A stretch of 64,000 nt of DNA from the IMG/VR virus record IMGVR_UViG_3300022654_000689; one strand, 5' to 3'. A model generated the notes under the pieces. The model did no database searches. It had not been told where the DNA came from and saw only the letters and a program-made list of their open reading frames with translations. This DNA is from a virus (taxonomy: Duplodnaviria; Caudoviricetes). Positions 8,358 through 59,306 of the stretch are shown one piece after another; the first letter of the stretch is position 1, and each line of letters opens with the position of its first letter. The translations under genes and the position numbers were made by a program.

Positions 8358-8369
8358 TAATTAACTGTT
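8358..8369 (-). promoter_or_regulatory. Late promoter AACA-N6-TA
   Basis: AACAgttaatTA upstream of 8324. Confidence 0.7.
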
Positions 8370-8391
8370 TTCTTAAAAAAATAGAGGATGA

Positions 8392-9231
8392 CTAATCATA
8401 GTCATCCTCTTTTAAAATTTTTCCCATAATATATGCAAATACAGGAGTTTTATAAAGTTTTAAATCTTTATTCATTTTATAAAATTGGTCTATAATATTT
8501 TCGTCTCTATTAATTTTAAGTACTCCGTTTAAATCTTTAGAATACCCTACTATATATTGAAGCAAAAATAACCAATTTCGTATTTCTATAAAATTAATTG
8601 TACCTGGGTGTTGTCTAAATTCTATTGTATTAACATGTCTTCTGTAAGATCTTGCATTAACAACTTTGTGTCTAGTTTTCATAAAGAAACCTATCTGTTC
8701 TTTACTTTTAGCATATCTAACTTTTTCAAGTTGTTCTAATTCAATTTCTTTACAGAATTTACAATTTCTAGCATATCTCTCTTCAGAAAATAAATTATCG
8801 ATTACATATTGATTGTTATAATAAAATACTAGTATATTTTTTATATCAGTATAGTCTAAAAATTCGCTGTCTATATGTACATGCAATCCACAAGTTGAAT
8901 CTACTTTAGCTCCGACTTTATTTAGAACCATACAAACCTTGCGTAATTCTTCTAATCCATCTTCGCCAGTTAAGGGTGGTGATACTACTTCTATTCCTTT
9001 TATTACTGTGTTTCCGTATAAATCTAATATAGGTTCTGTTCCTTCGTTAGTTACAGATCCATCATAAGTAATTTTCCATATTCCTTCTAAATCTATATGG
9101 TTATATGTTTGTATTTCTGCGTTTATTCCTAATTTTGTTAATTCATCTTTAATAATTTGTCTAGTACAACCGAAGCATTCTATTTCTATTCCAAATTTGA
9201 ATCTTAGATCTCGAATATCACCCTTATACAC
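8392..9231 (-). CDS. Putative amidoligase (COOH-NH2 ligase superfamily, Amidoligase_2-like)
   Basis: FGIEIE, WKITYDGSV, IEVVSPPL, STCGLHVHID and TIEFRQHPGT motifs. Start GTG 9231 after AGGTGA (ORF track gives 9240). Confidence 0.85.
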   Translation of the reverse strand: MYKGDIRDLRFKFGIEIECFGCTRQIIKDELTKLGINAEIQTYNHIDLEGIWKITYDGSVTNEGTEPILDLYGNTVIKGIEVVSPPLTGEDGLEELRKVCMVLNKVGAKVDSTCGLHVHIDSEFLDYTDIKNILVFYYNNQYVIDNLFSEERYARNCKFCKEIELEQLEKVRYAKSKEQIGFFMKTRHKVVNARSYRRHVNTIEFRQHPGTINFIEIRNWLFLLQYIVGYSKDLNGVLKINRDENIIDQFYKMNKDLKLYKTPVFAYIMGKILKEDDYD

Positions 9232-9240
9232 ATAAATCAC

Positions 9241-9912
9241 CTACTTATCTTCAATTGTAGACATGATTATCGCTAATGCTAGTTTACCGGCATCGCCATG
9301 TTCATAGCCTGCTTCTTCAAGCATTTTAATTACATGGACTGCTGAATTAGCTTTATCTTCGTTTTTTAAAAAGAAGTCGGATTTTTCTAAAAAACGTTGG
9401 TGCTTTTTTCCAATATCACATTTTCTTTCTTTGTCACATTTACATTCATGAGGTACTTCTACTTCAACTATTTTTTCTACTACTTTTTCTACAACAATTG
9501 GTACTTCTTTTGTTATTTCAATAAATTTTTCTACTGGTACTTCTTTCTCAACAACCTTTTCAACTATTTTTTCTACTTCAACTGGTTCTTTAATTATCAC
9601 TGGTTTTTTATTTAATGCTTTTTTAAGTTCTTTACTAAGTTCTTTTATTTGTTTTTTAAGTTCTTTAATTTGGTCTTTAAGCTCAATTATTTGATCTACA
9701 TGATCACATTCTTCTACTATTTCTTCAAATTCTTCTTCTTGATTTTCTTCATATAAATGTTCTAGAAGATTAGTTAATTCATTTATTGACATTTTATTCA
9801 AATTATCTATCATTAATGGGAATATTACTTCACCCATTTCTTTCTCGATTAACAATATTAAATATTGTTTTTCTTTAAGAAGATCTTCTTTTTTTATTTT
9901 TTTATCAATCAT
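9241..9912 (-). CDS. Coiled-coil protein with VEKIVEVP (alveolin/articulin-like) repeats
   Basis: EPVEVEKIVEKVVEKEVPVEKFIEITKEVPIVVEKVVEKIVEVEVP; RBS GGGGTG; late promoter motif upstream. Confidence 0.65.
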   Translation of the reverse strand: MIDKKIKKEDLLKEKQYLILLIEKEMGEVIFPLMIDNLNKMSINELTNLLEHLYEENQEEEFEEIVEECDHVDQIIELKDQIKELKKQIKELSKELKKALNKKPVIIKEPVEVEKIVEKVVEKEVPVEKFIEITKEVPIVVEKVVEKIVEVEVPHECKCDKERKCDIGKKHQRFLEKSDFFLKNEDKANSAVHVIKMLEEAGYEHGDAGKLALAIIMSTIEDK

Positions 9913-9938
9913 TATTTCTCACCCCGTAATATTTATAT

Positions 9939-9950
9939 TAATATTCTGTT
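9939..9950 (-). promoter_or_regulatory. Late promoter AACA-N6-TA
   Basis: AACAgaatatTA upstream of 9912. Confidence 0.7.
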
Positions 9951-10070: not shown

Positions 10071-11342
10071 TTAAAATGAGCATCTTAACGCTGCTGTATA
10101 TAATGCGAAACCATAATAATAACTAGGACTACTATTATCAGCAAATACTCTTATAACATCTCCTTTTTTAACTGTTAACTCTTTTTGTATCAGATATGCC
10201 TGCATGTCATCATTGTCATAAGTAAGTGCATCCCATATTCCAGTATTTGGTATTGTCATAGTCGGTGTATTAGATGTAGTACAGTCATCAGTTGAATATA
10301 AACTATCGTTTATATAACAATATAATTTAGTACCACTACGACCAGTACATAACAATACTGTTTCAAATCTTACTGTACCTGAAACTGGCATTTCAAAACC
10401 TTCAATAAGATTAGCTCCTTCTGCAGCCCATTCACTACCACCATAATAAGCTGCATTAGCATCATAATATATACATACATTAGTATTTTCTGGTATAGGT
10501 GTATTTAATTCACAGCTATTAGCATTCTTTCTATCAAACTCTTCATCTGTTTTAACTATTAAATCAGCCATAGTATCCTCTTCTAAAACCTCTACACCTT
10601 CATCTTCAAGTACAGAAGCAAGAGAGTCTCTAAGAGTAGTATCTTCTTCTCCTACTCCATATGCAACCCAATTACATTTTGTATTAGTACCATAATAACT
10701 AGGTATATCAGCAGATAACGCAAATTCACCTTCTCTAACATAAGTATTAGTTCCATCTAATACGACCGATACTGCCAATTCACTTTTAGATGTTGTAGCA
10801 TAATAATATTCTGACGTAGTTGTAGATTTTAAAGAATTGTACATAAAACGTATAGCACCGCTATTCCATACAAAGATCAAATCAGGTGTAAACGAAAAAC
10901 CTGAAACACTACATATTAAAGGTTTTGATGTATCTGCAGATATTGCGTTTACTGTACCACTAGCCATCTGTATGCCTTTACCTTCATTATCTGCCAATGT
11001 AGCTAACTTATCTATTAAAGCTTTAAACTTATCTCCACTTTCTATAGCAACACCATTAATCATCATATTAGTTTTAAATGTATTTAGAAGACTATTTATA
11101 TCTCCACTCATATCATTAAAAGTATCCTCTGCACTTAGAGGCTCTCCAATAGCGTCAGCTATAAGTTCTTTACCATCATTAACACCTTGATTTAGTTCGT
11201 TAACCGCATTAACTACATTATCTTTATTAGTAGTTTGCAAATTATTAAGTTCACCTATATTACTGCTAGCCACATTATACTTACCATCAACATAATTTTT
11301 AACACGTTCTAATGAATTTCTTAATATTTCCGATATATTCAT
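10071..11342 (-). CDS. Putative fibre tip / receptor-binding protein (paralog 2)
   Basis: The N-terminal ~128 aa and an internal ~50 aa block are near-identical to 11643-13319; other segments are unrelated. Confidence 0.65.
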   Translation of the reverse strand: MNISEILRNSLERVKNYVDGKYNVASSNIGELNNLQTTNKDNVVNAVNELNQGVNDGKELIADAIGEPLSAEDTFNDMSGDINSLLNTFKTNMMINGVAIESGDKFKALIDKLATLADNEGKGIQMASGTVNAISADTSKPLICSVSGFSFTPDLIFVWNSGAIRFMYNSLKSTTTSEYYYATTSKSELAVSVVLDGTNTYVREGEFALSADIPSYYGTNTKCNWVAYGVGEEDTTLRDSLASVLEDEGVEVLEEDTMADLIVKTDEEFDRKNANSCELNTPIPENTNVCIYYDANAAYYGGSEWAAEGANLIEGFEMPVSGTVRFETVLLCTGRSGTKLYCYINDSLYSTDDCTTSNTPTMTIPNTGIWDALTYDNDDMQAYLIQKELTVKKGDVIRVFADNSSPSYYYGFALYTAALRCSF

Positions 11343-11374: not shown

Positions 11375-11386
11375 TATTAATTTGTT
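11375..11386 (-). promoter_or_regulatory. Late promoter AACA-N6-TA
   Basis: AACAaattaaTA upstream of 11342. Confidence 0.7.
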
Positions 11387-14197: not shown

Positions 14198-15067
14198 CTA
14201 TATTCCAACTGCTGTAAATATTGCATTTAACTCATCTTCAGTTATATCATCTATTTTAGTATCAAGTTCATTATTTAAATTATTTATTTCTGTTTGTAAT
14301 TCATTAATACATGCAACCATATTATCTTTTGCATCAGTTAATAATTCATCACCATTTCCAATTGAAGTTAATAAAGTGTTTATAGATGTATCAAAATAAC
14401 TTAAATAAGCTGTTAGTTGGGTACCATCATCATCAATTACAGTATTGAAACGTACCATCGGGCTTATTATTCTTTCGCCTTTAATTAATGTATGAGAATC
14501 ATAAACTTCGCCTTCTTGAAATAAGGTACTCTGAATAAAATTAGCTGCTGCAACACTTGTATCTAATTTATTACCATTTAAAACTTCTAACGCTCCCGTT
14601 ATTTCAGCAACTTCCCCATTTATAACTTCATTGATATCTTCTATTTTACCATCGATTTCAGTTTCAGTATAATATCTGTTATCGTGATTATGAGTAGTTA
14701 CATCACCAGTTAACTTAGCTTCTATTTCAGCTTTAGTTATATCACTATTTTTTTGAGCATCAACAGGAGCATGCGCGGCTTGTGAGTGATCATAAGCTAT
14801 TTTCCCTCTATCGCCTCTATAAGCTGTAGTAGAAGTTTCTCCTAATATAGGTGCGAAAGTTGAAGGCTTATTAGTCACATCATTCCAGTTAGGAACCCAA
14901 GTATTAGACCTAGCCCCTACTTCATCAGCAGTATGGGTATGTGATATATCTGATTTTCCAGCCAATGCACTAACTAAAGTATTAGAAGTACCAGGCATAT
15001 ATACAGCATCAGCTCTGGTAATAGGAATTATATTTTCAGTGCCTAATTTAAGTATTTTTTTAGCCAT
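14198..15067 (-). CDS. Short fibre protein
   Basis: HTHTADEVGA, WNDVTNKPSTF, LGETSTTAYRGDRGKIAYDH and HNHDNRYYTETEID phage fibre motifs. Confidence 0.75.
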   Translation of the reverse strand: MAKKILKLGTENIIPITRADAVYMPGTSNTLVSALAGKSDISHTHTADEVGARSNTWVPNWNDVTNKPSTFAPILGETSTTAYRGDRGKIAYDHSQAAHAPVDAQKNSDITKAEIEAKLTGDVTTHNHDNRYYTETEIDGKIEDINEVINGEVAEITGALEVLNGNKLDTSVAAANFIQSTLFQEGEVYDSHTLIKGERIISPMVRFNTVIDDDGTQLTAYLSYFDTSINTLLTSIGNGDELLTDAKDNMVACINELQTEINNLNNELDTKIDDITEDELNAIFTAVGI

Positions 15068-15121: not shown

Positions 15122-15133
15122 TATAAATTTGTT
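15122..15133 (-). promoter_or_regulatory. Late promoter AACA-N6-TA
   Basis: AACAaatttaTA upstream of 15067. Confidence 0.65.
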
Positions 15134-15256: not shown

Positions 15257-17680
15257 TTATAAATCAGCAAGATTTCCTGTAAAGTCTTCAGCAGTTATAT
15301 GAGTAGCAGCTGCAGTTTCTAAAGCAGATATTCTATTAGCAGCGTCTACGTTTTCTAAAACTTTAACACGTCCCATTAATCCTTTACTATCGTCTCCAAC
15401 TACTACTTCTAAAGCGTCTATTTCTCCTTGAGCAGCATCTGCAGCATCTTGAGCAGCTTTTATAGCAGCATCTTTTCCGTCAGCTTGTTCTTTAGCATAA
15501 GCTTTAGCTTGAGCTAATATACCAGTTGTTTCGTTATTTATAGCAGCTATAGCTTCAGCATTTGCATCAGCATCGTCTTGAGCAGCGTCTGCAGCATCTT
15601 TAGCAGCTTGTATAGCAGCATCTTTTTCGTCAGCATAATCTTTAGCTTGTTTTAATATACCTGTTTCAGCATTGTTTATAGCATCTATAGCAGCTTGTAA
15701 TTGATCATGAGTATGAGCTGCAACGAAACTTTCAACAGCTGAAACTCTTCCAGCTAATGCGTCATCAGCATCTTTTCTAAGTTTAGCTTCATCAGCAACA
15801 GCTTTAGCAACAGATCCTGCTACTTCAGCTCCACCATTTAATACGCCTATAGCAGTTTCATTAGCTCCAACTCTAGCAACTAAAGCTTGAGCAGCAGCTC
15901 CATCATCAGTTATATATTTTTGGATTTCTTTTAATGTATCAACAGCAGCTTCTCCAGTGTCAGCAGCAGCCATGAAAGCATCTATATCCTCTTGAGCAGC
16001 TTTAGCAGCAGCTAATGCACCTGCAGCGTCAGCTTTAGCAGCAGCTTCAGCTTCGTCTATAGCAGCTTGTACAGTAGCTTTCTTTAATCCAACGAATTTA
16101 GCTTCGTTAGCTTCAACTCTGTCTTCTAAGTTTCCAGCAGCAGTATTAACATCAGCAACTAATTCATCAGCATATGCTTTAGCATCAGCTAATGCTTTTT
16201 TAACTGATCCGTCTCCATTTCCTTCTATAACAGCTAATCTGTCATTTTGAGCTTTGTCTTTAGCAGGTTGAGCAGCAACAAATGCTTCGTTAGCAGCTAT
16301 TCTAGTTTCGAATCCGCTTTCTACACCTTTAGCTCTAGTTTCTTCAGCTTTAACAGCTTTAGCAACAGATCCTTCTACGTCAGCTCCACCATTTAATACG
16401 TTTATAGCAGCTAGGTTGTCAGCTATTCCTTGTTCCATAACACTATGGTCATGATTTTGTTTGAAGTCTTCAACAGCTTCTAATCTGTCTACTAATCCAC
16501 CTTCGTCATCTAATCTTTTTTCTACAGCGTCTACTTCACCTTGAGCTTTATCTGCAGCTTGTTGAGCAGCATTAGCTAATCCTGCTATTCTTTCGTCTTC
16601 AGCTTCTAAATCTTCAACAGCTTTGTTAACAGCAGCTTCTATAGCAGCGTCAACACCTTGTTCCCCAACTTTTCCTTCTAACGCAGTGATTCTTCCATCT
16701 AAACCATTTTCTGCACCTGTAGCTCTAGTAACTTCAGCAGCTATTTTATTAGCTAAAGAACCTTCTTTATCAGCATTTTTTTCGTCAGCTAAAGCTTGTT
16801 CTACAGCGTCTACTTCACCTTGAACACCATCTATTCTTCCACCTAAAGCAGTATCAGCAGCAGCAAATTCTCCTCTTATAGCAGCTTCTACACCTTCTGC
16901 TCTTTCTTTTTCAACTTTAACATCAGCATCTATTTCAGCTTGTAATTCAGTTTTTAAAGCAGTATCTGCAGCAGCAAATGCAGCTTCTGCATCGTCTATT
17001 TCTTTTTGTAAAGCAGCTTTTAAAGCATCATCTTTGGCTTTAGCATCTGCAGCAGCTTGAACTAATAAACCATTTTCAGCATTATTTATAGCATCTATAG
17101 CATTTTGTAATTTTAAATCTTCAGCAGCAAATTCGCTTCTTAATTCACCATGATCAGCTTCTAATTCATTAACTCTTTTAATTAATCCACCTTCAGCATT
17201 TCCTACTACACCTTCTAAAGTGTCTACTTCACCTTGAGCTTTATCTGCAGCTTGTTGAGCAGCATCTGCAGCATCTGCAGCAGCTTTTATAGCGTTAGCA
17301 ACAGCTCCGCCTTCTTTATTAGCATTTTCTAATGCTAATATTTTAGCATCTTGAGCAGAGTCTATAGCAGGTTGAGCTTTAACAAATGCTTCGTTAGCAG
17401 CAACTCTTCCTTCTAAGTTTTCATCTTTAGCTTTTAAATCAGCAACATCTTTAACTAATCCCTTAGAAGCATCTCCAACTGTACCTTCTAAAGCATCTAA
17501 TCTACCATCAGTAGCAGTCATATAATTTTTTAAAGCTGAACCTTCTCCACCGCCTATGTCAGCTTTCATAGCTTCAAGGACTTCATTTAATAATTTTCCT
17601 TCTTCACAAACAACACAGTCCATTTTCGTAATAGGTAATATTTGTTCTTCACCTATTTTAAGTATTTTTTTGCTCGCCAT
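15257..17680 (-). CDS. Ala-rich coiled-coil fibre shaft protein (~807 aa)
   Basis: Heptad-rich AADAAQ/EVDALE repeats, DTLKEIQKYI and GSVAKAV motifs. Start MASKK at 17680 after AAGGAG. Strongly biased GCT/GAA codons suggest high expression. Confidence 0.75.
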   Translation of the reverse strand: MASKKILKIGEEQILPITKMDCVVCEEGKLLNEVLEAMKADIGGGEGSALKNYMTATDGRLDALEGTVGDASKGLVKDVADLKAKDENLEGRVAANEAFVKAQPAIDSAQDAKILALENANKEGGAVANAIKAAADAADAAQQAADKAQGEVDTLEGVVGNAEGGLIKRVNELEADHGELRSEFAAEDLKLQNAIDAINNAENGLLVQAAADAKAKDDALKAALQKEIDDAEAAFAAADTALKTELQAEIDADVKVEKERAEGVEAAIRGEFAAADTALGGRIDGVQGEVDAVEQALADEKNADKEGSLANKIAAEVTRATGAENGLDGRITALEGKVGEQGVDAAIEAAVNKAVEDLEAEDERIAGLANAAQQAADKAQGEVDAVEKRLDDEGGLVDRLEAVEDFKQNHDHSVMEQGIADNLAAINVLNGGADVEGSVAKAVKAEETRAKGVESGFETRIAANEAFVAAQPAKDKAQNDRLAVIEGNGDGSVKKALADAKAYADELVADVNTAAGNLEDRVEANEAKFVGLKKATVQAAIDEAEAAAKADAAGALAAAKAAQEDIDAFMAAADTGEAAVDTLKEIQKYITDDGAAAQALVARVGANETAIGVLNGGAEVAGSVAKAVADEAKLRKDADDALAGRVSAVESFVAAHTHDQLQAAIDAINNAETGILKQAKDYADEKDAAIQAAKDAADAAQDDADANAEAIAAINNETTGILAQAKAYAKEQADGKDAAIKAAQDAADAAQGEIDALEVVVGDDSKGLMGRVKVLENVDAANRISALETAAATHITAEDFTGNLADL

Positions 17681-17718: not shown

Positions 17719-17730
17719 TATTAATTTGTT
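17719..17730 (-). promoter_or_regulatory. Late promoter AACA-N6-TA
   Basis: AACAaattaaTA upstream of 17680. Confidence 0.7.
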
Positions 17731-17758: not shown

Positions 17759-17770
17759 CATTAATCTGTT

Positions 17771-33444: not shown

Positions 33445-33476
33445 GTAATAAAAAATTAAATTTGGAGGTAGTGTGT

Positions 33477-43048: not shown

Positions 43049-43186
43049 TAAAGTATAGTATTAAATAATATAATGTGGATAAATTATATCATCAAGTTGA
43101 AATTATCGTACATAAACAATACGTTATATTGTATTGTAATTATTTGTTAATTAATTACAAATCTAAAAAGAAAAAGGTGTCTTATT

Positions 43187-43804
43187 GTGGATATAATAGA
43201 TTTTAATAGCATGTATAACACATTCATTAAAAATAATGACGACTTTACAATATGTGAAGAAATATTAAATAAATTATATAAAAAAGATCCAATAACTTAT
43301 AATCATTGTTATAGAGTTGGCTGTCTAGCTTGTAGTTTTTCTATGTTCCTGGGTAATAGTGACGATTATAACAAAAAAATATTCAATTCAGCAATATTAC
43401 ATGATATAGGAAAACTTAAAATATCTAATGATATTATGAATAAAAATGCAAAAAATCTTACACATGAAGACAGAATAATACTTAAAAAACATCCTTTATA
43501 CGGTGTTGAATTTATATTGAAAAATAACTACGAACAAATTTATTATGTTACACCGGTATTAGCACTTCATCACGAAACAACAAGTGGAACAGGATGCTTC
43601 AATCTTGATTATTTGGATCTATCTAATTTTATTATTACTGTTAAAATTTGCGATTGCTTTGATGCAATTAGAGTTGCTAGGAGACCAGATGATATTAATA
43701 GAACTGTAGATGAAGCGCTTAATATACTTAATACTAATTGTTTTCATAATCTTATACCTACATGGATTGAAAAATTTAATAAGTATATTAAATACATATT
43801 ATAA
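43187..43804 (+). CDS. HD-GYP-like metal-dependent phosphohydrolase
   Basis: KDPITYNHCYRV, AILHDIGK, KKHPLYG, LHHET.SGTGCF and ICDCFDAI; late motif at 43115-43126. Confidence 0.8.
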   Translation: MDIIDFNSMYNTFIKNNDDFTICEEILNKLYKKDPITYNHCYRVGCLACSFSMFLGNSDDYNKKIFNSAILHDIGKLKISNDIMNKNAKNLTHEDRIILKKHPLYGVEFILKNNYEQIYYVTPVLALHHETTSGTGCFNLDYLDLSNFIITVKICDCFDAIRVARRPDDINRTVDEALNILNTNCFHNLIPTWIEKFNKYIKYIL

Positions 43805-45934: not shown

Positions 45935-45970
45935 AAGAAGTGTCCCATATCTGGGACACTTCTTTTTTTT
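45933..45970. terminator. Bidirectional intrinsic terminator
   Basis: AAAAGAAGTGTCCCA-tatc-TGGGACACTTCTTTTT between convergent genes. Confidence 0.8.
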
Positions 45971-48693: not shown

Positions 48694-48727
48694 TACTTAG
48701 TTGTTTTTTCAGTCAAACAACCTAATA
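48694..48727. promoter_or_regulatory. Back-to-back late promoters
   Basis: AACAactaagTA (minus, 48694-48705) and AACAacctaaTA (plus, 48716-48727). Confidence 0.7.
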
Positions 48728-48770: not shown

Positions 48771-49379
48771 ATGGAAGGAATGTACATCGGGATAAAAATT
48801 AATAATAATGAATTATATAGAGTTGATTGTAGACGCTCATTAGTTCAAAAAGGTGCAGTAGATCTTACAGGTGTTGCTCTATTTGCTGATATTGGTTCTG
48901 CTTTCATTAGACAAAATGTAGAATCACTAAAAGGTGTTTCACAACTGTCATTTAAAGATTATGAAACAGGAATGGTATTTGAAATAGAAATGCATCAAGC
49001 TACAAGAAATGTAAATATATTGATGACTGATTCTGTAACTGGATTAAGTCGTTTGTTATTACCTAGTGAATTTAAAGTTATAATAGACACTAGCTGGTTT
49101 AATGTAATTGATGAAAATGGTAATTTAGCAGTATCTACTATATTTGAAGTTAATTCAATAGATCTTTCAAGATTATGCAATATGTCTAAAGATATTCTTA
49201 ATATAGGATTATTACATTATATTAAAGTTGGAGGATCTGCAACTGATATAAGAATTAATATGGCTCAAATAATACCTATTATTATAGCTCATGACGATTA
49301 TATAGCTACAATACAAATGAATGAAAATACACCTATATTAATACAACAATGGTATGAAAATGGTTGTCCATTAGAATAA
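48771..49379 (+). CDS. Hypothetical protein (late)
   Basis: RBS GAGGAGG; late motif upstream. Confidence 0.7.
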   Translation: MEGMYIGIKINNNELYRVDCRRSLVQKGAVDLTGVALFADIGSAFIRQNVESLKGVSQLSFKDYETGMVFEIEMHQATRNVNILMTDSVTGLSRLLLPSEFKVIIDTSWFNVIDENGNLAVSTIFEVNSIDLSRLCNMSKDILNIGLLHYIKVGGSATDIRINMAQIIPIIIAHDDYIATIQMNENTPILIQQWYENGCPLE

Positions 49380-49380: not shown

Positions 49381-49460
49381 TTTTAAGAGTATATTATAAT
49401 AATGCAGTGAATGACTAAATTTAGTCATTCACTTTTTAATTTATAAGTAACATCAAATTA
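49381..49460 (+). promoter_or_regulatory. Early motif + 28-bp palindrome + late motif upstream of DNA polymerase
   Basis: TTTTaagagTATATTATaataaTG (49381-49404); AGTGAATGACTAAA/TTTAGTCATTCACT (49406-49433); AACAtcaaatTA (49449-49460). Confidence 0.65.
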
Positions 49461-49484: not shown

Positions 49485-51904
49485 ATGAATATATTAACAG
49501 AATACAAAGAAAGAATGATAAAGAATATCAAACGATTAAGACCTGATGTTCCTGATGAAAAGATTGAAAAGATAGTTGTTAAGAAGATGAAAGAACAAAT
49601 GAAGATACCTGAATGTGAATTAGAAGGTACTAGAACAAATGTGTTTAAATTAGTTCAATTTATAAGAGAAAAAGATTTAATAATAACTCCATTTGGCGCT
49701 TTATATCGATCACATGAAAATGCTCCTAATGAATTGGCTGGAATGGTCGATATGCTTCTTAAAGAACGTAAAGTTGCTAAAAAGCAAATGTTCAAGTATG
49801 CAGATACAGATCCAGTATTACACAATAACTACAAGATGATACAGCTAACACTAAAATTATTAGCAAACTCATTCTATGGAGCAAGTATAGAAGCTAATAG
49901 TATATTTTATCATCCATACTTCGGCCCCTCTATCACTTTCAGTGGCCAACGTATAATAATGACGGCAGTTAATATATTTGAGAAGTTCTGCGGTAATAAC
50001 ATCATGTTCCGTTCTCAAGATGATGTACTTCAATATATGATTAATATATTAGAAGAAGATTATATAGATATTGAAATTGATGACGTTGATATGAAAGATT
50101 TATATTTCTATCTAGTTGATAAAACAGACAACAATCCAGAAATGGTACAAGTTGCTAAGTTTATAAAATCATTATCTCAAGTTGAATTGAATAGAATTTA
50201 TTATCGTAACAATCTTCTTGAAATTGTAAAACATAGTAAGACAGTTCAAGATTTAATGTCTGGTATCTTAGGAAATGACAAATTTCTAGATCCAAATGAG
50301 CCGCCTGAAGAAATGAAAGAGAATATAGATAGACTTTGGGAGATTCTTGAAAACTGGGTATACTATAATAATCAAGATTTCTATTGTTGGGATAACGCAG
50401 ATGTAAGAGAAAGAAAAACAGTATTAACGATTAATTAATTAGTCCTTCATATTAGTGATAATATGTCGAAAGCATTCTAATTGCTGGGAACCCCTTAGAG
50501 CCTGATTAACTACAACGTGATCCGTGAGGATGAGCGTGAATGTTTGAAAATAATCAGGATTGGGCAATCAGCAGCTAAGATTTGTATTAAAATTTGAAGA
50601 TACCGATAACAATTTCGTATTACTATTAAAAATTTGGAGTGATACTACATGACAAGAAAATTAACACATGAAGAATTTTTAGAAAAAACATTTCAGAATT
50701 AGAAGAAACTAAAAAAAGAGACGCAGCAAAGAATAAATTTTGCGAGGATAATAATTTAAAATTGTTAAGAATTGGATACGAAAGTTATAAGAATATTAAT
50801 TCGGTATTAGATTCATATTTTAATACATTTAAAGTTCAACGACCAGTCGTAATGACGTACACTCTAAGCCAATAATGAGAGTGGAAATGGGTGCCATCTT
50901 ATTTTATTAAGATGTTGATATGGTCTGGCCTAACTAGAAATAGTTAGATCCATTGGGTCGGTCTGGCGAGCCGGCTTAAACATTTGCGTGATACTGATTC
51001 AAATTTCCTTTATCTACAACCATTTGTTAAAACATGCTTTGATATGTTCAATCTTAAAGATAACGACCTAAACAGAATGACAACTACTAATGTGTGTGGT
51101 TATTTGTTAGGAAAAGTTATAGCAAAACAATATTGGGAAATGACTACTAGTTTAGGAATACCTACAGCCAAACGTCCTATTATTGCGATGAAAAATGAAT
51201 TTTTCTATAAACGTATCATGTTAACTAAGAATAAGAAAAACTATGGAGGAATGGTTGCACTTCAAGAAGGTAACTTAGTACCACCTGAAAGAGGACTAGA
51301 TATTAAAGGTTTACCTATTAAGAAAGTTTCTGTAAACAAAGATGTAAGAGAACATTTTACAGATATACTACAAAATGATATTCTATTAGCAGATGATATA
51401 AGACTTAGCAGAGTAGTTTACAAGTATCAACAATTAGAAAGTGAGATAAGAGAATCACTTGCAAAAGGTGAAACTAGATTTACAAAACCAGATAAAATTA
51501 ATATGATTGAAACTTATAAATTACCATTTGGTATACAATCAGTAAGGGGGACTTTATTATGGAATGCAATATATCCAGAAAAAGAAATTAGTATACCAAC
51601 TAAAGTAAACACTGTTAAACTTGCAATAGACAATATATTTGAAGATCCAACAATACCTGACTTTGTTAAAGAAGCGACAGAAAAATTATTTAAAGAATTT
51701 CCAGATTTAGAATCTAAAGGTACAACAGTAATATGTGTACCAAAAGATTTAGATAAGTTAGACGATTGGATAATAGAACATCTTGATATTGATACTATAG
51801 TAAATGACAATATGAAACCGGGACTTCCAATATTAGAAGCTATAGGATTTAGACCAGTTACCGCTAATAAAACTCAAATTGCAAGTAACATTATCCATCT
51901 TTAG
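49485..51904 (+). CDS. Family-B DNA polymerase, split jumbo-phage-type subunit (exons 49485-50431 and 50989-51904; 620 aa spliced)
   Basis: Motif B QLTLKLLANSFYGA, ITFSGQ; splicing restores motif C VLTIDTDSNF; KNKKNYG and LDIKGLPIKK. Confidence 0.9.
50432..50988 (+). ncRNA. Group I intron (557 nt) in DNA polymerase gene
   Basis: P1 GAU|UAA-uuaa-UUAGUC. Core AATTGCTGGGAA, AATCAGCAGC, TTCAACGACCA, GATATGGTCT. Terminal G at 50988 restores ATT-GAT-ACT-GAT. Confidence 0.88.
50649..50875 (+). pseudogene. Internally deleted homing endonuclease remnant within intron
   Basis: Late motif (50608-50619) and RBS GGAGTG, then MTRKLTHEEFLEK, then out-of-frame ETKKRDAAKNKFCEDNNLKLLRIGY (Vsr/EDxHD-like C-terminus). 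Confidence 0.7.
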
Positions 51905-51940: not shown

Positions 51941-52666
51941 ATGGGAAACAAATTTCAAGAAACACAAGCTATAAAATTATATATAATATGCGATATAGAC
52001 GATATATTAGTATTACAAACACCAAAATGGTGTAAAATGTTATACGAACAATATAAAGACGATCCAATAATGAATAAGTATTTGGCACTAGATAAACTAT
52101 TATGTAATAAGGATATAGTTCTTGAAAGAGGGGAATATTATTTAAACAAATGGCTCGCAAATCCTGATATTCCATTAGACAAAGTTCCTAAAGAAATTAA
52201 TGAAGCAATATTAGATGTTTGCGATGTTATAGATTTTTATGATGACTTAGAACCTACAAAAATGGGAATTGCCATAAGAGACTTATGTCAAACAACAAAA
52301 GTCGCTAAGATATATTTTGTAAGCAAAAATGATGAAGGCCCTGCATGGGAAAGTAAAAAAAGATTTATGGATAAACATTTTAATTTTGGAGATAAATCGG
52401 AGTTAATACGTGTTCCTTTAAAAGAACGCAAGAGTGATTATATTAATAAGTATATAAAAGATAAAGATAAAATCAATATTATATTTGAAGATCACCCTAA
52501 AAATGTAATAGACATTTTAGATAACTCGCTTCAAAACAATAAAGAAGTTGCGGCAATGTGTCCTGATTTTGGATACGTGCTATTTTCAGAAGATTTTTCA
52601 GATGAAAAACTTCAAGAATATGACGACAATTTTAGAGAAATTCGTATTTATGAAACATTAGATTAA
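51941..52666 (+). CDS. HAD-superfamily 5'(3')-deoxyribonucleotidase-like protein
   Basis: ICDIDDIL (DxD), FYDDLEP, FVSK and IIFEDHPKN. Confidence 0.7.
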   Translation: MGNKFQETQAIKLYIICDIDDILVLQTPKWCKMLYEQYKDDPIMNKYLALDKLLCNKDIVLERGEYYLNKWLANPDIPLDKVPKEINEAILDVCDVIDFYDDLEPTKMGIAIRDLCQTTKVAKIYFVSKNDEGPAWESKKRFMDKHFNFGDKSELIRVPLKERKSDYINKYIKDKDKINIIFEDHPKNVIDILDNSLQNNKEVAAMCPDFGYVLFSEDFSDEKLQEYDDNFREIRIYETLD

Positions 52667-52710: not shown

Positions 52711-53190
52711 ATGAGCCAATCACTTAATAATTTAAACATATATAATGAATTTGGAGCTGACGTTAGTTCTTCTCAGGCCAAACAAGTTGTACAAACGACG
52801 TATGATAGACAATTAGATACTCTTACAAAATTATTCAAATTAATAGTAACTACGATAAAAGAGAAATGGTCTAAATTTATGGCAACTATAGATGATAATT
52901 TAGCTAAACTAAAAAATCGTATAGATGTCTCTGGCAATGGAGGAGGGTCTAACCTATTAAGACAAGCATATTTTAAAATGGAACAAGTTAAAAAATTTGA
53001 TAACCCCATGAAAAGAGTTTTAATGAAAGCTAATATGATATTTTCTAAAGCTAGAAACTCATCCAACCCTCAATTAATAATGCAGGCTAAAGAACAGCTT
53101 AAAGAACAACGTCAAATCCAAAAAAACACAATAGATAGCGCAAAAACAGTTTTAGAAGAATCTAAAGCAATGTTAAAGAATAAACGATAA
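52711..53190 (+). CDS. Hypothetical helical protein (possible internal virion protein)
   Basis: RBS GGGAG before ATG 52711; AACA-N6-CA at 52670-52681. Confidence 0.55.
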   Translation: MSQSLNNLNIYNEFGADVSSSQAKQVVQTTYDRQLDTLTKLFKLIVTTIKEKWSKFMATIDDNLAKLKNRIDVSGNGGGSNLLRQAYFKMEQVKKFDNPMKRVLMKANMIFSKARNSSNPQLIMQAKEQLKEQRQIQKNTIDSAKTVLEESKAMLKNKR

Positions 53191-53223
53191 ACCGTATCTA
53201 TAAAATTTTAAATTATATATTAT

Positions 53224-53265
53224 AATTGTGAATAAAGATAAAATATTTTATCTTTATTCACAATT
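53224..53265. repeat. Perfect 42-bp palindrome overlapping the early promoter start
   Basis: AATTGTGAATAAAGATAAAAT|ATTTTATCTTTATTCACAATT, plus a third half-site TATCTTTATTCA at ~53273-53284. Promoter TATATTAT at 53216-53223. Confidence 0.85.
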
Positions 53266-53334: not shown

Positions 53335-54015
53335 ATGTTAGATAATAATGGTTTAGTAAGAGCGACTAGAGGAGAAATATACCAAGCAGATCTTGGTATG
53401 AATAGTTTTGGAATAGAAATTAAACCTTTCGTAGTTGTTATACAAAATGATACAGGCAACCATTATGCTGAAAATGTTATAATTGTTCCATTATACGAAG
53501 CAACTAATTATAACAAAGATAAATTTAAAAATTACCCAATGATAAAATTATTCAATAGAAACTATTTCATAAATTATAAAGACATAAACACAATAGATAG
53601 AATAAGATTAATACCTACACCAAAACCTTATGGACAATTAACTAAAGAAGAAGATATAGAATTAAACAAAAAACTAACAGAATTCTTAATAACAGAAAAA
53701 GAATTTAAAAGAGGACAAGTAAGATGGCTAAATGTTGATGACGGAAAACTAGAAGAATATGAACTACATGGAGAAAGACCTGCAGCTATATTAAGATATA
53801 ACAAAGATACAAATGAATATATAGTTGCATTAACAACAAAAAGTAAAAAACGTGGAATAGATACACATGTTCATTTAGAAACAGAAGCTACATTATTCTT
53901 AGAGCATATTAGAACTGTTCCAGCTAATGAATTAGGATTAAATGCAGATTATATATTAAACAAAAAAGAAATGAAAGAGATGGAAGAATGTTTAAGAATT
54001 AGTTTAGCTATATAG
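53335..54015 (+). CDS. Tandem two-domain PemK/MazF-family endoribonuclease
   Basis: Domain 1: RGEIYQADLG...PFVVVIQND.GN....VIIVPL...INTIDRIRL. Domain 2: KRGQVRW...ELHGERPAAIL...VALTT...LEHIRTV...MEECLRISL. Confidence 0.8.
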   Translation: MLDNNGLVRATRGEIYQADLGMNSFGIEIKPFVVVIQNDTGNHYAENVIIVPLYEATNYNKDKFKNYPMIKLFNRNYFINYKDINTIDRIRLIPTPKPYGQLTKEEDIELNKKLTEFLITEKEFKRGQVRWLNVDDGKLEEYELHGERPAAILRYNKDTNEYIVALTTKSKKRGIDTHVHLETEATLFLEHIRTVPANELGLNADYILNKKEMKEMEECLRISLAI

Positions 54016-54160: not shown

Positions 54161-56098
54161 TTATTGTTCCATAAATCCGGTAAACATTATATCACTCCAG
54201 TTTAATATGTCATCCATTCTAGTACTTAGGTTAGATTTAGCAGATTTTAATATAGTTATGTATATATGCACATCTGTAGTTTGCCCTATACGATATATTC
54301 TATCTTCGCATTGCGACTGATCTGCCTGTCTCCAAGGAGTACCAAAGAAAAACATTTGGTTCGCTTCAATTAATGTAACTCCGGTACTAAGTGTTTGAGA
54401 TGTAGCTAATAATACTTCACAGTTATCATCTTTTTTCCATTTATCTATTAAGTCCATTCTATTAGCAGTACCACCTACAATAGCTACGTTTCCTATTCCT
54501 TCTTTTTCTAAACTTTCTTGTAAATATTTAATTACTGGTAAACTAGATGAGAATATAACTGTTTTCTTATCATTATTTACAATCATATCTATTAATTTCT
54601 TTTTATTTTCTTCGAACATAGTTATAAACATTTCAGCACGTCTACTAGATAATATTTGTCCCACAGCTCTACCCATACAACTTTCTTTAAGTCTGATGGA
54701 CATAGTTTCTGCTTTTTTAAATACTTTTAATTCAGCAGGGGACATTCTAGGATATATATTAGTTTTTGTAAATTCTTCAATTTTTATTTGTTCCACTTCA
54801 TGATAATCTTCTAATCCTTTATCAGGGAAATTATTGACAAATTTCATATATAAATTAAATTCATCACTTGGGCAGTACATTTTATGTTGATTAAGCATCT
54901 CTATATATTCACGTTTATATCTTTCAAAATTAGGTTGTTCTTCTTTCATATATTTTTCAAATAAAGCTTTTACTTCTGCAGTTACAGATTCAACTTCATA
55001 TAAACCAGGTTTTTTAACTGTTAATGGCATTCTCAATACATGTTTAGTTGGTAATTTTAGTACTTCATCTTTAGTACGACGATGTATTATACGTTTAAAA
55101 CGGTTCTTAACTATATTACTACTTGATAGTGAGTCAACGTTAAACATTCTGTTATATACTACTGCAGCCTCCATATCAAAATATGGATCTATTAATAACA
55201 TTGAAGGTATAATTTCATTAGGTAAAGCTTTTATAGGTGTACCTGACATTAATAGAATATCTTTACATTTTATTTTTTTAGCAAATTGTATTAACTCTAT
55301 TACACGTTTACCTTTAAAATTACGGAAATTATGAGATTCATCGACAATTATCATATTTGATTTGTTATCTACATATGGGCCAAGTTTTGCAATAGCTTCT
55401 TGATTTACTATTACATATTTAGTTGTATCTGCATTATATTGAAATTTCTTTTTACCACCTACTATGAAAACTTCGTCATAGTATAATTTATCATTATTTT
55501 CATATTTATAGAAATACTGTTTTATCTCAACTGCCCAGTTTTCTTTTAATGAATTTGGACATACGATATATACTTTTTGAACCTTCAGACATTCAGCAAG
55601 TGCTATTGATGTAAGAGTTTTTCCTAAACCTTGATCAAAGCTTAATATTAGACCACGAAGTGAGTTATTTATTTTACGAGTATTGTAAGTTTTTATAAAT
55701 TCTGATTGATAATTTTTAAGATCGTATCTAATTCCGTTTAATGGTGACATATCTATCGGTCTTTCTTGCCAATCTTCTTTTTTTCCAACCCATGTTTTTT
55801 GTCTAATTTCAGACATAATTATTCGATATTGATAAGAATTATATTTCATGTCTAATTCTTCAAACAATGTTAATATCTCTAATGCAAAAAATAAATGACA
55901 TTCAAGAGTTGCTATTTTCATTTTTTCTTTAGATTTAATTATTTTCATGTTATAAAGCATTAAATCTTTTTTACTATATTGCTGATCAAATATCTTAGCA
56001 ATATTTTTTTCTTCATATAGGTTTTTTATTCTAGCTAACAGTTTTGTCATATTCATATTCTTAATACGTATTTTATTATCTTTTACCTCTACGAACAT
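54161..56098 (-). CDS. SNF2/SF2 DExH helicase
   Basis: DQGLGKT, VCPNSL, IVDESH, MSGTP, STGVTL and QCEDRIYRIGQ. Start MFVEV at 56098 after AAGGAGG; AACA-N6-CA at 56128-56139. Confidence 0.9.
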   Translation of the reverse strand: MFVEVKDNKIRIKNMNMTKLLARIKNLYEEKNIAKIFDQQYSKKDLMLYNMKIIKSKEKMKIATLECHLFFALEILTLFEELDMKYNSYQYRIIMSEIRQKTWVGKKEDWQERPIDMSPLNGIRYDLKNYQSEFIKTYNTRKINNSLRGLILSFDQGLGKTLTSIALAECLKVQKVYIVCPNSLKENWAVEIKQYFYKYENNDKLYYDEVFIVGGKKKFQYNADTTKYVIVNQEAIAKLGPYVDNKSNMIIVDESHNFRNFKGKRVIELIQFAKKIKCKDILLMSGTPIKALPNEIIPSMLLIDPYFDMEAAVVYNRMFNVDSLSSSNIVKNRFKRIIHRRTKDEVLKLPTKHVLRMPLTVKKPGLYEVESVTAEVKALFEKYMKEEQPNFERYKREYIEMLNQHKMYCPSDEFNLYMKFVNNFPDKGLEDYHEVEQIKIEEFTKTNIYPRMSPAELKVFKKAETMSIRLKESCMGRAVGQILSSRRAEMFITMFEENKKKLIDMIVNNDKKTVIFSSSLPVIKYLQESLEKEGIGNVAIVGGTANRMDLIDKWKKDDNCEVLLATSQTLSTGVTLIEANQMFFFGTPWRQADQSQCEDRIYRIGQTTDVHIYITILKSAKSNLSTRMDDILNWSDIMFTGFMEQ

Positions 56099-56142
56099 AT
56101 TGAACCTCCTTATTTCAAAAAATATCATGATATTCTGTTCTT

Positions 56143-56167
56143 TTTTCATTTGCATATTATAAGTTTG
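56143..56167 (+). promoter_or_regulatory. Early-type promoter
   Basis: TTTTcatttgCATATTATaagttTG, back-to-back with the helicase late promoter. Confidence 0.65.
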
Positions 56168-56220: not shown

Positions 56221-56811
56221 ATGAATAATGTTGTTAGAAATGATATGGCTAAATTATTACAAAGATCTTTAAACGCTATATGGGAAAGTAGAATAATATA
56301 TCATATAGAACATTCTGATGAAATTGATATATCTTATTTAAATTCGCTAGTTGAAGCTTATATTAGAGTTGAAAATGCATTTAAAGATATTATATTTGAA
56401 CATAGACTAAAGGTTGAAGGATCTAATTTCTTAAAGAAATCTAAATTTAATAGTTTACCTAGACGTATGAGAGTTGAATTGTTAGACGATGGTGATCAAG
56501 CTACAAGAATGGGATATATTACAAAATCTATGAAAGAATTTTATCAAGGTAAATGTAGTGGAATTTCTTTCTATTTAGTATACAATATGTTTAGTAGAAA
56601 GATACCACTAGATTTTAACAAAGATTGGGCTACACCAGGATATGCGACTGGAGAATACAGAAGAATGAACTTATTAGTTGAAAGATTTTATGTGAAAGAT
56701 GGTGAATCATTCGTATTATTTAAAAACAACTGGGATGTGCAAATTACTGAGAAATCATTCTTTGCAATGAATTTAAAAGGTTTAGAAAATTTATTTGAGG
56801 AGGTAAAGTAA
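56221..56811 (+). CDS. Hypothetical protein
   Basis: RBS AGGAGG. Confidence 0.7.
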   Translation: MNNVVRNDMAKLLQRSLNAIWESRIIYHIEHSDEIDISYLNSLVEAYIRVENAFKDIIFEHRLKVEGSNFLKKSKFNSLPRRMRVELLDDGDQATRMGYITKSMKEFYQGKCSGISFYLVYNMFSRKIPLDFNKDWATPGYATGEYRRMNLLVERFYVKDGESFVLFKNNWDVQITEKSFFAMNLKGLENLFEEVK

Positions 56812-56812
56812 T

Positions 56813-58849
56813 ATGAATAATATGAAAGAGATAATGTCTTTATTAAAAATGCATCAAAATTGCATTGCTGAATTAAATTTAAAGAATAGTTTTAAAAAGT
56901 ATGAAAAAGACATTAAAGCTTTATTGGAAAAAGCGTCCGATTTGTATTACAATACTGACGAAAGAATAATAGATGATCAAACTTATGATGACTTATATAA
57001 AATGTACCGTAAGTATACTAATCAAACTATAATAGGAGCTGCACCTAGAACTAATCAAGTAGATGTTGATCATGAATTTATAGATTTAGTAGGAACATTA
57101 GATAAAGTTAATAATTTAAAAGAAACTAAAGAATGGTTAAAAGGTATATTTGGTGATAAAGAGGTTGAAGTTGTTATAACATGGAAGTATGATGGTAACT
57201 CTGTTGTTGAAACAATGCACGATGGTGAGTGTACAATGGGGTTAACAAGAGGTAGAGACGGAAAAGGAAAAGATGTAACAGCATTGTTAAAAGCAATACC
57301 TAGAACATTTCCTAAAGAAATGAAAGGTGATTTTGGTATCAAGTATGAAATCATTATGACTTATAAAAACTTTGAACAATATTTGAAAGATACTGAAAAA
57401 GATTATAAGAACCCTCGTAGTGTTGTTGGCGGTATATTTAGTATGGATGATGGTGTTAAGTATGCTAAGTATTTAACAGCTGTTCCATTATGGATACGTA
57501 AGAAAGGACAAAGAATAAGCAGATTTGATGAAATTCAATTAATGGAACAATATATACCTGATAATATTAACATGAATAATATGTATCAATCTGTTGGAAC
57601 GCTAGATGAAGTAATGAGTGATATAGAGTGGTTATATAATGATTTACAACAAAAACGTGTGTCAGACAGTATGGAATGTATGATAGATGGAATAGTAATA
57701 GAAGTATTAGACCAAGGATTGAGAGATAAATTAGGATATACAAATGATAGTAAAGACATACCTAAGTTTGCAATAGCATTAAAATTCCCATATATGGAAA
57801 AGACAAGTGAAGTAGAAAGAATAGAATTTTGGCTGTCTAAAAATGGTACAGGAATAATAACACCTGTATGCTATTATAAACCAGTACATTTTATAGGAGC
57901 TACACATGAAAAACAATCGTTACAAAACTATAAGAGATTTAAAGAGCTTAATTTAGGTGTAGGATCTCCTATAACAGTACAATTTAGAAATGATGTTTTA
58001 ACTTATATAGAACCATTAGCAACTGACAAAATTATAGAACCAATCCCATTTATAGATCATTGTCCTGAATGTAATGGTGATGTTGAGATAGTTGTTAACG
58101 AATTTGGAGAAGAAACTTATGTAAAATGTGGCAATCCTTTATGTCCTAGTAAAATGGAAGGTCAGATAATGAACTGGATTAATAAACTAGATTTAAAAGG
58201 AATAGGTGCGGCATATGTTCACATGATGTTTGAAAAAGGAGTAGTTACATCTATACCTGATTTATATAGTTGCAGTGAAAAAGACATGGCATTAGCTGTT
58301 AACAGTGAAATTATGGCTAAGAAATTTAAAAAAGCTATAAACGACAAATTAGATGTATTTGACTATGAACTTATAGGTGGACTTGGAATTGATGAGATAT
58401 CTAGAGATACCGCTAAGCTAATATTTAAAGTTATGACATTTGACGAATTCATAGATATATACAATGCTGGTGAACTTAAGACTAAATTAATCAGTATTAA
58501 CGGAATAGGAGATAAGACAATTAAGTATTTAGAAGAAGGTTTAACTGTTAGAGAAGATATGATAAGTGAGTTGTTAGAGCATATAAACATTAAGAATTTT
58601 AAAGATACAATAAAAACAGCTTCTAAAGTATATACGTTTGTAGTTACAGGAAAACTTAATAACTTCACAAGAGACAGTGTAAAAGAATATATAGAAACTA
58701 GAGGATATAAATTAGTAGGAAGTGTAACAAGTAAAACAGACTATCTTGTTAACAATGATATTAATTCTGTATCCGGTAAGAATAAAAAAGCAAAAGAATT
58801 AGGAATACCTATAATAACAGAAGAAGAATTAATAAAAATTTTAGAATAA
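56813..58849 (+). CDS. ligA: NAD-dependent DNA ligase
   Basis: LYYN....IDDQTYDDL, KYDG adenylation motif, NPRS, IDGIVI, AIALKF, Zn finger CPEC...CGNPLC, HhH, BRCT (FVVTG...SVTSKTDYLV). Confidence 0.95.
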   Translation: MNNMKEIMSLLKMHQNCIAELNLKNSFKKYEKDIKALLEKASDLYYNTDERIIDDQTYDDLYKMYRKYTNQTIIGAAPRTNQVDVDHEFIDLVGTLDKVNNLKETKEWLKGIFGDKEVEVVITWKYDGNSVVETMHDGECTMGLTRGRDGKGKDVTALLKAIPRTFPKEMKGDFGIKYEIIMTYKNFEQYLKDTEKDYKNPRSVVGGIFSMDDGVKYAKYLTAVPLWIRKKGQRISRFDEIQLMEQYIPDNINMNNMYQSVGTLDEVMSDIEWLYNDLQQKRVSDSMECMIDGIVIEVLDQGLRDKLGYTNDSKDIPKFAIALKFPYMEKTSEVERIEFWLSKNGTGIITPVCYYKPVHFIGATHEKQSLQNYKRFKELNLGVGSPITVQFRNDVLTYIEPLATDKIIEPIPFIDHCPECNGDVEIVVNEFGEETYVKCGNPLCPSKMEGQIMNWINKLDLKGIGAAYVHMMFEKGVVTSIPDLYSCSEKDMALAVNSEIMAKKFKKAINDKLDVFDYELIGGLGIDEISRDTAKLIFKVMTFDEFIDIYNAGELKTKLISINGIGDKTIKYLEEGLTVREDMISELLEHINIKNFKDTIKTASKVYTFVVTGKLNNFTRDSVKEYIETRGYKLVGSVTSKTDYLVNNDINSVSGKNKKAKELGIPIITEEELIKILE

Positions 58850-58861
58850 AGGAGGAATTAA

Positions 58862-59284
58862 GTGTTTACATTAGGAAAATTTAATTTTCAATTAGACGAA
58901 GAAGCATCGGAAGTAGATGGTGGATATTTAATGTTCACTATTTATAAACGAAATGCCTATAATTGTAACAACGTTCATAATATAAGCGTATTAATACATT
59001 CAGAAACATACGAACTAGAACCATTCTTTTTCTATTATGGAAATCGATTTGGCAATTTTAAATCATGCACAATAAATGACTCTGATATGTGGTATTATGG
59101 TAAAGATAAAGAAGGATGGAAATTTGTAATACCTAAATCTGAAAAATTAGATGATTACATTATAGAATATCCTATCAGTAGAGAATCTGCTTTGACATTA
59201 ATAAAAGTAGTATGTACAATTAGAGATAATTATGAAGAATATGTCAAGAAGATGAATAAAGAAGTAGTAGAATTACAATTATAA
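58862..59284 (+). CDS. Hypothetical protein
   Basis: RBS GGAGG; GTG start. Confidence 0.6.
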   Translation: MFTLGKFNFQLDEEASEVDGGYLMFTIYKRNAYNCNNVHNISVLIHSETYELEPFFFYYGNRFGNFKSCTINDSDMWYYGKDKEGWKFVIPKSEKLDDYIIEYPISRESALTLIKVVCTIRDNYEEYVKKMNKEVVELQL

Positions 59285-59306
59285 AATGTAAAAAACATAC
59301 AATTAT

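Follow-up and report, generated by a model that had tools for sequence, protein, structure and literature searches.

We analyzed a window of 64,000 nucleotides (nt) from an uncultured phage of the animal gut, corresponding to bases 18822-82821 of the 113,632-bp IMG/VR virus record IMGVR_UViG_3300022654_000689 (G+C about 29%), in which the motif AACA-N6-TA recurs shortly upstream of genes. Coordinates are given in window numbering unless marked "contig", which refers to the 113.6-kb record. CheckV estimated the completeness of this record at 44%. One protein of the phage was also present on a 330,661-bp contig, therefore suggesting a jumbo phage of about 330 kb, of which the 113 kb read here represent about one third. 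Genes were called with a simple home-made caller of open reading frames (ORFs) and ribosome-binding sites (RBSs), with ORFs listed down to 20 amino acids (aa), and 100 genes were called on the contig. The late promoters of phage AR9 follow the consensus AACA-(6N)-TA/G, the last base being the transcription start site (TSS, +1) (PMC5312081). We consider that the AACA-N6-T-A/G sites of the gut phage are very probably the late promoters of an AR9/PBS1-like programme with two RNA polymerases (RNAPs). The late-type sites were located as follows.

8358-8369, minus strand: late AACA-N6-TA, +1 at 8358, 34 nt before gene 6561-8324 of the tail-fibre cluster, behind a terminator hairpin
9939-9950, minus strand: late-type, +1 27 nt from the start of gene 9241-9912
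11375-11386, minus strand: late-type, +1 33 nt from the start of gene 10071-11342
15122-15133, minus strand: late-type, +1 55 nt from the start of gene 14198-15067
17719-17730, minus strand: late-type, directly behind a terminator hairpin, +1 39 nt from the start of gene 15257-17680
17759-17770: second late copy, TG-type, near the site at 17719-17730
27935-27946, minus strand: late-type, +1 36 nt before 24441-27899, the gene for a tail protein of 1152 aa
40154-40165, minus strand: late-type, ahead of HNH homing-endonuclease gene 39455-40129 (AR9 g271-like)
41167-41178, minus strand: late-type, 14 nt before ORF 40740-41153, which itself lies upstream of the Amidase_3 ORF 40247-40795
43115-43126, plus strand: late-type, +1 61 nt before HD-domain gene 43187-43804
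48694-48705, minus strand: late-type, ahead of virion protein gene 45969-48662 (AR9 g260-like)
48716-48727, plus strand: late-type, divergent from the site at 48694, ahead of gene 48771-49379
49449-49460, plus strand: late-type, ahead of DNA polymerase exon 1 (49485-50422), a gene that also has an early-type motif
50608-50619, plus strand: motif within the DNA-polymerase intron (about 50423-50989), with a short frame of about 17 codons downstream
52654-52665, plus strand: strict AACA-N6-TA, 46 nt before gene 52711-53190, with a -CA variant at 52670, 16 nt downstream
56128-56139, minus strand: AACA-N6-CA variant, ahead of helicase gene 54161-56098, outside the strict consensus
59294-59305, plus strand: doubtful late match; a hairpin (59307-59330) with a T-run begins 2 nt past the predicted +1

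The sequence-only reading had listed 16 sites of the form AACA-N6-YA, and all of these exist at the coordinates and on the strands given, 14 as AACA-N6-TA and two as AACA-N6-CA. It had also put the chance rate at about one per kb per strand, which is right: the loose pattern AACA-N6-YA occurred 123 times in the window compared with 134.9 +/- 12.7 times in shuffled sequences, so that no enrichment was detected window-wide. This would be expected if a short AT-rich word turned up by chance in intergenic DNA that is itself rich in A and T. However, the stricter word behaved differently with respect to gene starts. Within 100 nt sense-upstream of the 100 genes of the contig, AACA-Nk-TA was found 31 times at k=6, and only 3-14 times at the other spacings between 0 and 12. 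The expectation from the genome rate was 5.95 (Poisson p=4e-13), and the antisense control on the same upstream regions gave six copies. The window alone displayed the same pattern (16 observed, 4.8 expected, p=4e-5). When about 30,000 words of the type 4mer-Nk-2mer were enumerated without bias, AACA-N6-TA was the top word that was neither an RBS nor A/T-rich low-complexity sequence. The extended form AACA-N6-TAT was located sense-upstream in 22 of its 58 genome-wide copies, although this region represents 4.4% of the sequence space. The late-motif signal is positional, not global. The spacing scan, the antisense control, the enumeration and the association with gene function described below refute chance, which we regard as scarcely credible.

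Another explanation would be promoters for the host RNAP, in which TAT would open a -10 box and AACA would serve as an upstream element, both recognized by the host core enzyme with a host or phage sigma factor. In agreement with this, TAT followed the spacer in 22 of the 31 sites, the region is AT-rich, and sigma-70-like matches were common in the window (177, compared with 153 +/- 12). However, the latter number barely exceeds that of the shuffles, nothing was conserved around -35, and no -10 hexamer continued past T(-1) A(+1) T(+2), the next three positions being A in 28%, A in 47% and T in 36% of the sites. The phage also encodes its own RNAP subunits and mirrors AR9 in all measured respects. 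Host-RNAP promoters are thus very improbable here.

The resemblance to AR9 was examined by running the same script on AR9 as a positive control. In AR9, 90 sites were detected compared with 23.8 expected, at k=6 only. The median distance from the predicted TSS to the start codon was 32 nt in AR9 and 37.5 nt in the gut phage. The +1 base was A in 82% of the AR9 sites and in 86% of those of the gut phage, and in both phages the spacer was AT-rich with few C or G. Motif, spacing, start-codon distance and flanks all match AR9, and the gut phage carries in addition a homologue of the beta'-C subunit of the non-virion RNAP (nvRNAP) as well as an AR9-like early promoter; the AR9-type late promoter proposed from the sequence alone was therefore upheld.

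The nvRNAP beta'-C gene is split by a short insert.

31323-32460, plus strand: nvRNAP beta'-C exon 1, 46% identity to AR9 gp154 (rpoC model TIGR02386, E=1.9e-19)
32461-32665, plus strand: ORF-less insert of 205 nt; the 5' exon ends in T and the insert in G, and joining the exons restores the conserved PLTQRLLS.KHLL
32666-33372, plus strand: nvRNAP beta'-C exon 2, 37% identity to residues 387-631 of AR9 gp154

The companion gene was also found: a virion RNAP beta'-N subunit is encoded at contig 106025-107735 (52% identity to AR9 g145, tblastn). Both RNAP fragments were independently recognized by the NCBIfam rpoC model (E=1.9e-19 for beta'-C and 9e-8 for beta'-N). Two other large proteins tried as possible RNAPs were rejected. 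The protein matching phrog_23782 (804 aa) is a glycogen phosphorylase, and the pair matching phrog_9915 (918 + 726 aa) is a virion-type protein with CotH and leucine-rich repeat (LRR) domains.

The early consensus of AR9 is AAATATATATTAT-(6N)-G (PMC5312081), and the 34 early promoters annotated in the AR9 record have ATATTAT-N6-G in common. On the contig of the gut phage, [C/T]ATATTAT-N6-G displayed 13 sense-upstream matches among 14 genome-wide copies (0.8 expected), with a peak at N6. Early-type sites precede gyrB, nvRNAP beta'-C and DNA polymerase, and the same genes carry annotated early promoters in AR9. As judged from the motif and its gene context, the AR9 early promoter is conserved in the gut phage. 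The sites are given below.

28022-28036, plus strand: early-type CATATTAT-N6-G, ahead of gyrB (28073-30355); AR9 gyrB also has an annotated early promoter
31278-31292, plus strand: early-type, ahead of the nvRNAP beta'-C gene, matching the relative place of the early promoter of AR9 g154
33430-33444, plus strand: early-type, ahead of gene 33471-34118
49390-49404, plus strand: early-type motif TATATTAT-N6-G, ahead of DNA polymerase, adjoining hairpin 49406-49433
53216-53230, plus strand: early-type motif, ahead of tandem MazF gene 53335-54015
56153-56167, plus strand: early-type, ahead of the operon of 56221-56811 and the NAD-dependent ligase gene 56813-58849
60629-60643, plus strand: early-type, ahead of SbcC 60662-63283

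The two promoter classes were distributed according to gene function (Fisher p=1e-4). Among 14 structural, lysis or virion-RNAP units, 12 were late-only, one was early-only and one had neither motif. The 10 replication or nvRNAP units comprised none that was late-only, five early-only, two with both motifs (DnaB and DNA polymerase) and three with none. As the AR9 scheme demands, the virion RNAP gene belongs to the late class and the non-virion RNAP gene to the early one, and DNA polymerase with a late and an early motif corresponds to the "continuous" class described for AR9. This split, together with the opposite classes of the two RNAP genes, is among the reasons why the sites are read as late promoters of an AR9-type nvRNAP.

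Direct support thus comes from the statistics of the late motif, the homologues of RNAP subunits, the conservation of the early motif and the promoter-class split, and the mechanism is taken over from AR9 by homology. A multisubunit RNAP packaged in the virion would start the early genes at [C/T]ATATTAT-N6-G(+1), and among these would be the genes for the second, non-virion RNAP. The latter, presumably guided by a sigma-like subunit of the gp226 type, would recognize the template-strand complement of AACA (-11 to -8). Late transcripts would then start at the A or G after T, about 25-60 nt before the virion, lysis and homing-endonuclease genes. Genes with both motifs, such as those of DnaB and DNA polymerase, would be expressed throughout infection.

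Several observations weigh against this interpretation. No late-type site was found within 130 nt of the portal gene. The site at 59294 is directly followed by a terminator hairpin (59307-59330) and T-run and is probably not a working promoter, and the site at 50608 in the DNA-polymerase intron has nothing longer downstream of it than a frame of about 17 codons. The two -CA variants (52670, plus strand, and 56128, minus strand) fall outside the T-A/G consensus of AR9, and the gene starts themselves rest on a simple home-made caller. The gp226-like subunit, which the sequence-only reading had named as a gene to be sought, was not found on the 113 kb available, which make up about a third of the genome of about 330 kb (best E=0.07), nor were homologues of AR9 gp089, gp105 and gp270, the other three nvRNAP subunits, detected on these 113 kb. 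Finally, the RNA runs that hold related sequence do so as contigs only, from which transcript starts are unreadable; these contigs hold a small share of the words and cover the DNA-polymerase exons of a relative, which is no proof of transcription.

The gp226 family itself was followed further in public data. A profile search yielded 510 clusters at 50% identity, therefore suggesting that AR9-like transcription is widespread among uncultured phages. A word search with AR9 gp226 gave 18 matches, none of them tied to this phage genome, and the members of 20 of the 510 clusters were checked without finding one on the 330,661-bp contig. The gp226 homologues near to AR9 keep V at the V206 position, while two distant ones have S or T.

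The relationships of the phage were analyzed by homology searches, in which the collection scans excluded the window's own records. Its portal and large virion protein matched only 21 of 50,697 phage records, all belonging to the AR9/PBS1 group, BpSp, Listeria phage LPJP1, the Staphylococcus S6 group and Yersinia phage phiR1-37. When the gene calls were compared with the annotated AR9 genome (tblastn), homologues with 30-52% identity were obtained for gyrB, DnaB, RecD, SbcC/SbcD, the NAD-dependent ligase, both DNA-polymerase parts (g132, g152), the portal and the virion proteins g153, g259, g260, g277 and g281. The phage is a distant relative of AR9/PBS1. No match to phage records was found by megablast with window 28000-52000, none to viral contigs (own record excluded) by exact words from the contig ends, and nothing in related-locus searches with the beta'-C protein alone or with the glucanotransferase.

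Recognition of the late promoter of AR9 requires uracils at template positions -11 and -10, which are also sufficient for it (PMC5449584), and these uracils are selected by V206 of gp226 together with gp105 (PMC9209446). PBS1/AR9 and S6 are reported phages with uracil DNA (U-DNA), and the DNA of LPJP1 can be amplified only by a polymerase that tolerates uracil (PMC8460666). The sequence-only reading had passed from the motif to U-DNA. This step fails, because relatives encoding ThyX or dUTPase have the same enrichment: AACA-N6-T(A/G) was found 22 times upstream of genes (7.1 expected) in the uncultured phage G009, which encodes ThyX, and 14 times (3.0 expected) in G006, which encodes dUTPase, in each case at N6 only (80 kb per record). 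The promoter word is therefore not diagnostic of uracil DNA, and both phages probably make thymidylate or remove dUTP while using it.

The virion DNA of the gut phage may nevertheless carry deoxyuridine in place of thymidine, with its late promoter read via the template uracils at -11 and -10 as in AR9, and we give this a little better than an even chance. The inference of U-DNA, deprived of the motif, keeps other grounds. Relatives were gathered via a beta'-C alignment, and their whole records were searched for thymidylate and dUTP genes. In the beta'-C tree the phage fell into an 18-row group with AR9/BpSp and S6/LPJP1 (94 in the Shimodaira-Hasegawa-like approximate likelihood ratio test, SH-aLRT). 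Three uncultured sisters with 56-69% identity grouped with it, and the relatives with ThyX or dUTPase branched outside. The portal tree recovered the same group (SH-aLRT 96), with G006, G009 and phiR1-37 outside. The five cultured clade phages examined (AR9, BpSp, LPJP1, phiR1-37 and S6) all lacked ThyA, ThyX and dUTPase. In the gut phage these three were likewise absent from the 113 kb read, about a third of the genome. An FAD oxidoreductase (contig 109386-110774) was considered as a flavin-dependent methylase or a ThyX-like enzyme and rejected, as it gave only generic FAD/NAD-binding matches.

A further indication comes from a gene next to the DNA polymerase.

51941-52666, plus strand: NT5C-like HAD phosphatase, homologue of AR9 g151 (35%), directly downstream of DNA polymerase as in AR9

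The protein displays HAD motif I (DIDDIL), the DxD motif and an NT5C-like feature profile, and it is a candidate dTMP/dNMP phosphatase. A dTMP phosphatase is a classical PBS2-induced activity. The NT5C-like protein had matches in all five cultured clade phages (weak in phiR1-37, E=7e-4), and no match in G006, G009, G010, RisingSun or Fnp4.

Against U-DNA stand, besides the undiagnostic motif, the fact that only about a third of the genome of about 330 kb was searched and the absence of Ugi, dCMP deaminase and gp226 homologues from the 113-kb contig; a Ugi-like inhibitor and a deaminase were among the genes to which the sequence-only reading had pointed. Both trees are single-gene quick trees, and the phage sits on a long branch in the portal tree. 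U-DNA can fail in library preparation based on the polymerase chain reaction (PMC8460666), and the phage was completely assembled from at least 11 ordinary faecal metagenome runs, a weak point since library methods are not given.

The alternative is ordinary thymine DNA, or another modification, with an nvRNAP that reads AACA-N6-TA without uracil, as is apparently the case in the relatives with ThyX or dUTPase. It is favored by the identity of the promoter word in relatives with thymidylate or dUTP-removal genes, by the very large size of the gp226 family (510 clusters), whose distant members have S or T at the position of the thymine-excluding V206 of AR9 (PMC9209446), and by the two thirds of the phage genome that are unseen. 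However, both marker trees place the phage among known or probable U-DNA phages and apart from the ThyX/dUTPase relatives, the NT5C-like gene follows the U-DNA pattern, and no thymidylate gene was found in the 113 kb. We rate thymine DNA as a serious possibility that falls somewhat short of even odds. Returning to U-DNA, the full picture of a phage of about 330 kb with uracil DNA, which infects strict anaerobes among the gut Clostridia (Peptostreptococcaceae) and reads its late genes through template uracils, is one we hold to be marginally on the probable side. If true, no U-DNA genome known to us would be larger, and none would previously have come from an obligate anaerobe. In the mirror case, a phage with thymine DNA inside an AR9/S6 group that otherwise has U-DNA would imply a reversion, together with a gp226 that works without uracil.

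The complete stretch was present (96-100% of the words sampled) in 11 metagenome runs from faeces, dated 2018; the gut and faeces runs listed are from animals, and diverged relatives were found in bovine gut runs. The phage 4-alpha-glucanotransferase showed 52-56% identity to proteins of Intestinibacter, Romboutsia, Peptostreptococcaceae and Lachnoclostridium. This makes a host of the class Clostridia plausible, on the basis of one acquired gene. The designation "probably clostridial" thus holds only in the broad sense, given the Peptostreptococcaceae-type proteins nearest to the glucanotransferase and the animal faeces.

Besides the promoters and RNAP genes, several other features were observed. 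The DNA-polymerase early motif lies close to another signal (49390-49433): its predicted G(+1) lies 2 nt before a 12-bp hairpin that is also terminator-like for the upstream gene. This arrangement could reflect overlapping signals or attenuation. Many genes without the late word have a third upstream word, AAATTAAATT (including close variants), directly adjoining their GGAGG RBS, at 31300, 35690, 41930 (minus), 42385 (minus), 42945 (minus), 44700, 49470, 53310 and 56200. Nine sense-upstream copies were counted (1.1 expected), and the word may be a leader or translation signal, or a further promoter class.

Three short ORF-less inserts break the nvRNAP beta'-C gene (32461-32665), the g132-like DNA polymerase gene (about 66400-66490, contig 85220-85310) and the virion RNAP beta'-N gene (about 88650-88730, contig 107470-107550). 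Common to them is a GA(A/T)GATATAGTCT core with a short hairpin behind it, and all three, including the 205-nt insert of beta'-C, are probably mini group I introns. Rfam returned no hit on the contig that reached the gathering score, and between 31000 and 52000 of the window no family of introns matched at E<=0.5. The insert at 50423-50989 of the g152-like DNA polymerase is missing in a diverged bovine-gut relative, in which one DNA contig passes from 50422 to 50990 across 10 other letters; the absence of the insert there fits a mobile intron.

Auxiliary genes of glycogen metabolism are represented by a full-length glycogen/starch phosphorylase (35716-38130, plus strand) and the 4-alpha-glucanotransferase (L003:12355-13824, plus strand; Glyco_hydro_77, 565 bits). 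The gene at 53335-54015 (plus strand), behind an early-type motif, encodes a single chain with two PemK/MazF toxin domains and has no obvious antitoxin neighbour. The HD-domain phosphohydrolase at 43187-43804 (plus strand), a possible nucleotide hydrolase, has a late-type promoter and is located just upstream of two virion-protein homologues. Two ORFs at contig 89929-92109 and 94628-97384 (minus strand; window 71108-78563) match both ends of the 1813-position phrog_9915, with a CotH kinase-like domain and LRR/DUF285 repeats among their features; the approximately 2.5 kb between them contain a homing-endonuclease-like ORF with its own late-type motif.

These results carry the AR9/PBS1 two-polymerase scheme beyond the phages of soil Bacillus, into an uncultured and much larger phage lineage from animal guts, and both promoter words appear nearly unchanged in a 330-kb phage whose proteins are only 30-50% identical. 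They provide a ready promoter and timing annotation for a genome of mostly unknown genes. The promoter word alone should not serve to call uracil DNA, because ThyX/dUTPase relatives carry it, and it becomes a testable question at which point in this clade the sigma-like subunit came to require uracil or ceased to do so.

Among known systems, the nvRNAP of phiKZ with gp68 is similar in its split beta/beta' multisubunit RNAP, its sigma-like fifth subunit and the pairing of a virion with a non-virion polymerase (PMC7598289, PMC9209446). It differs in its late promoter TATG, its thymine DNA and a beta'-C that is at most about 26% identical in phiKZ-like records. The uncultured IMG/VR phages G009 (L030, ThyX) and G006 (L026, dUTPase) share the N6-only upstream enrichment of AACA-N6-T(A/G) and a homologous beta'-C; unlike the gut phage, they branch outside the AR9/S6 group and have no detectable NT5C-like homologue, whereas the gut phage shows no ThyX or dUTPase in the searched part. 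The S6 group, LPJP1 and phiR1-37, with U-DNA or probable U-DNA, belong to the same clade by portal, virion protein and beta'-C, all without ThyA, ThyX or dUTPase and all with an NT5C-like match (weak in phiR1-37). However, they are farther from the gut phage than AR9 is (beta'-C 33-34% compared with 46%), and phiR1-37 lies outside the tree group holding the gut phage. No late promoter consensus could be derived for phiR1-37 (PMC5312081).

AR9/PBS1 is the closest system. Protein identity to it is only 30-50%, and the genome of the gut phage is about 330 kb compared with 251 kb in AR9. The gut phage comes from the animal gut with a host that is probably a member of the Peptostreptococcaceae, not Bacillus; its early core starts C/T-ATATTAT where AR9 has the longer AAATATATATTAT, and gp226, Ugi and dCMP deaminase were not seen in its accessible third. 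The two nevertheless have an identical late consensus with N6 spacing, which is A(-11)ACA-N6-T-A/G(+1) for the nvRNAP-gp226 holoenzyme of AR9 (PMC5312081, PMC5449584, PMC9209446), similar start-codon distance and flank composition, and homologous beta'-C (46%) and virion RNAP beta'-N (52%). They also share the early core ATATTAT-N6-G, the partition into early, late and both, the same promoter class for the orthologues gyrB, beta'-C and DNA polymerase, and an NT5C-like gene adjoining DNA polymerase. The system is thus a known one, and the gut phage is a new, distant member of it.

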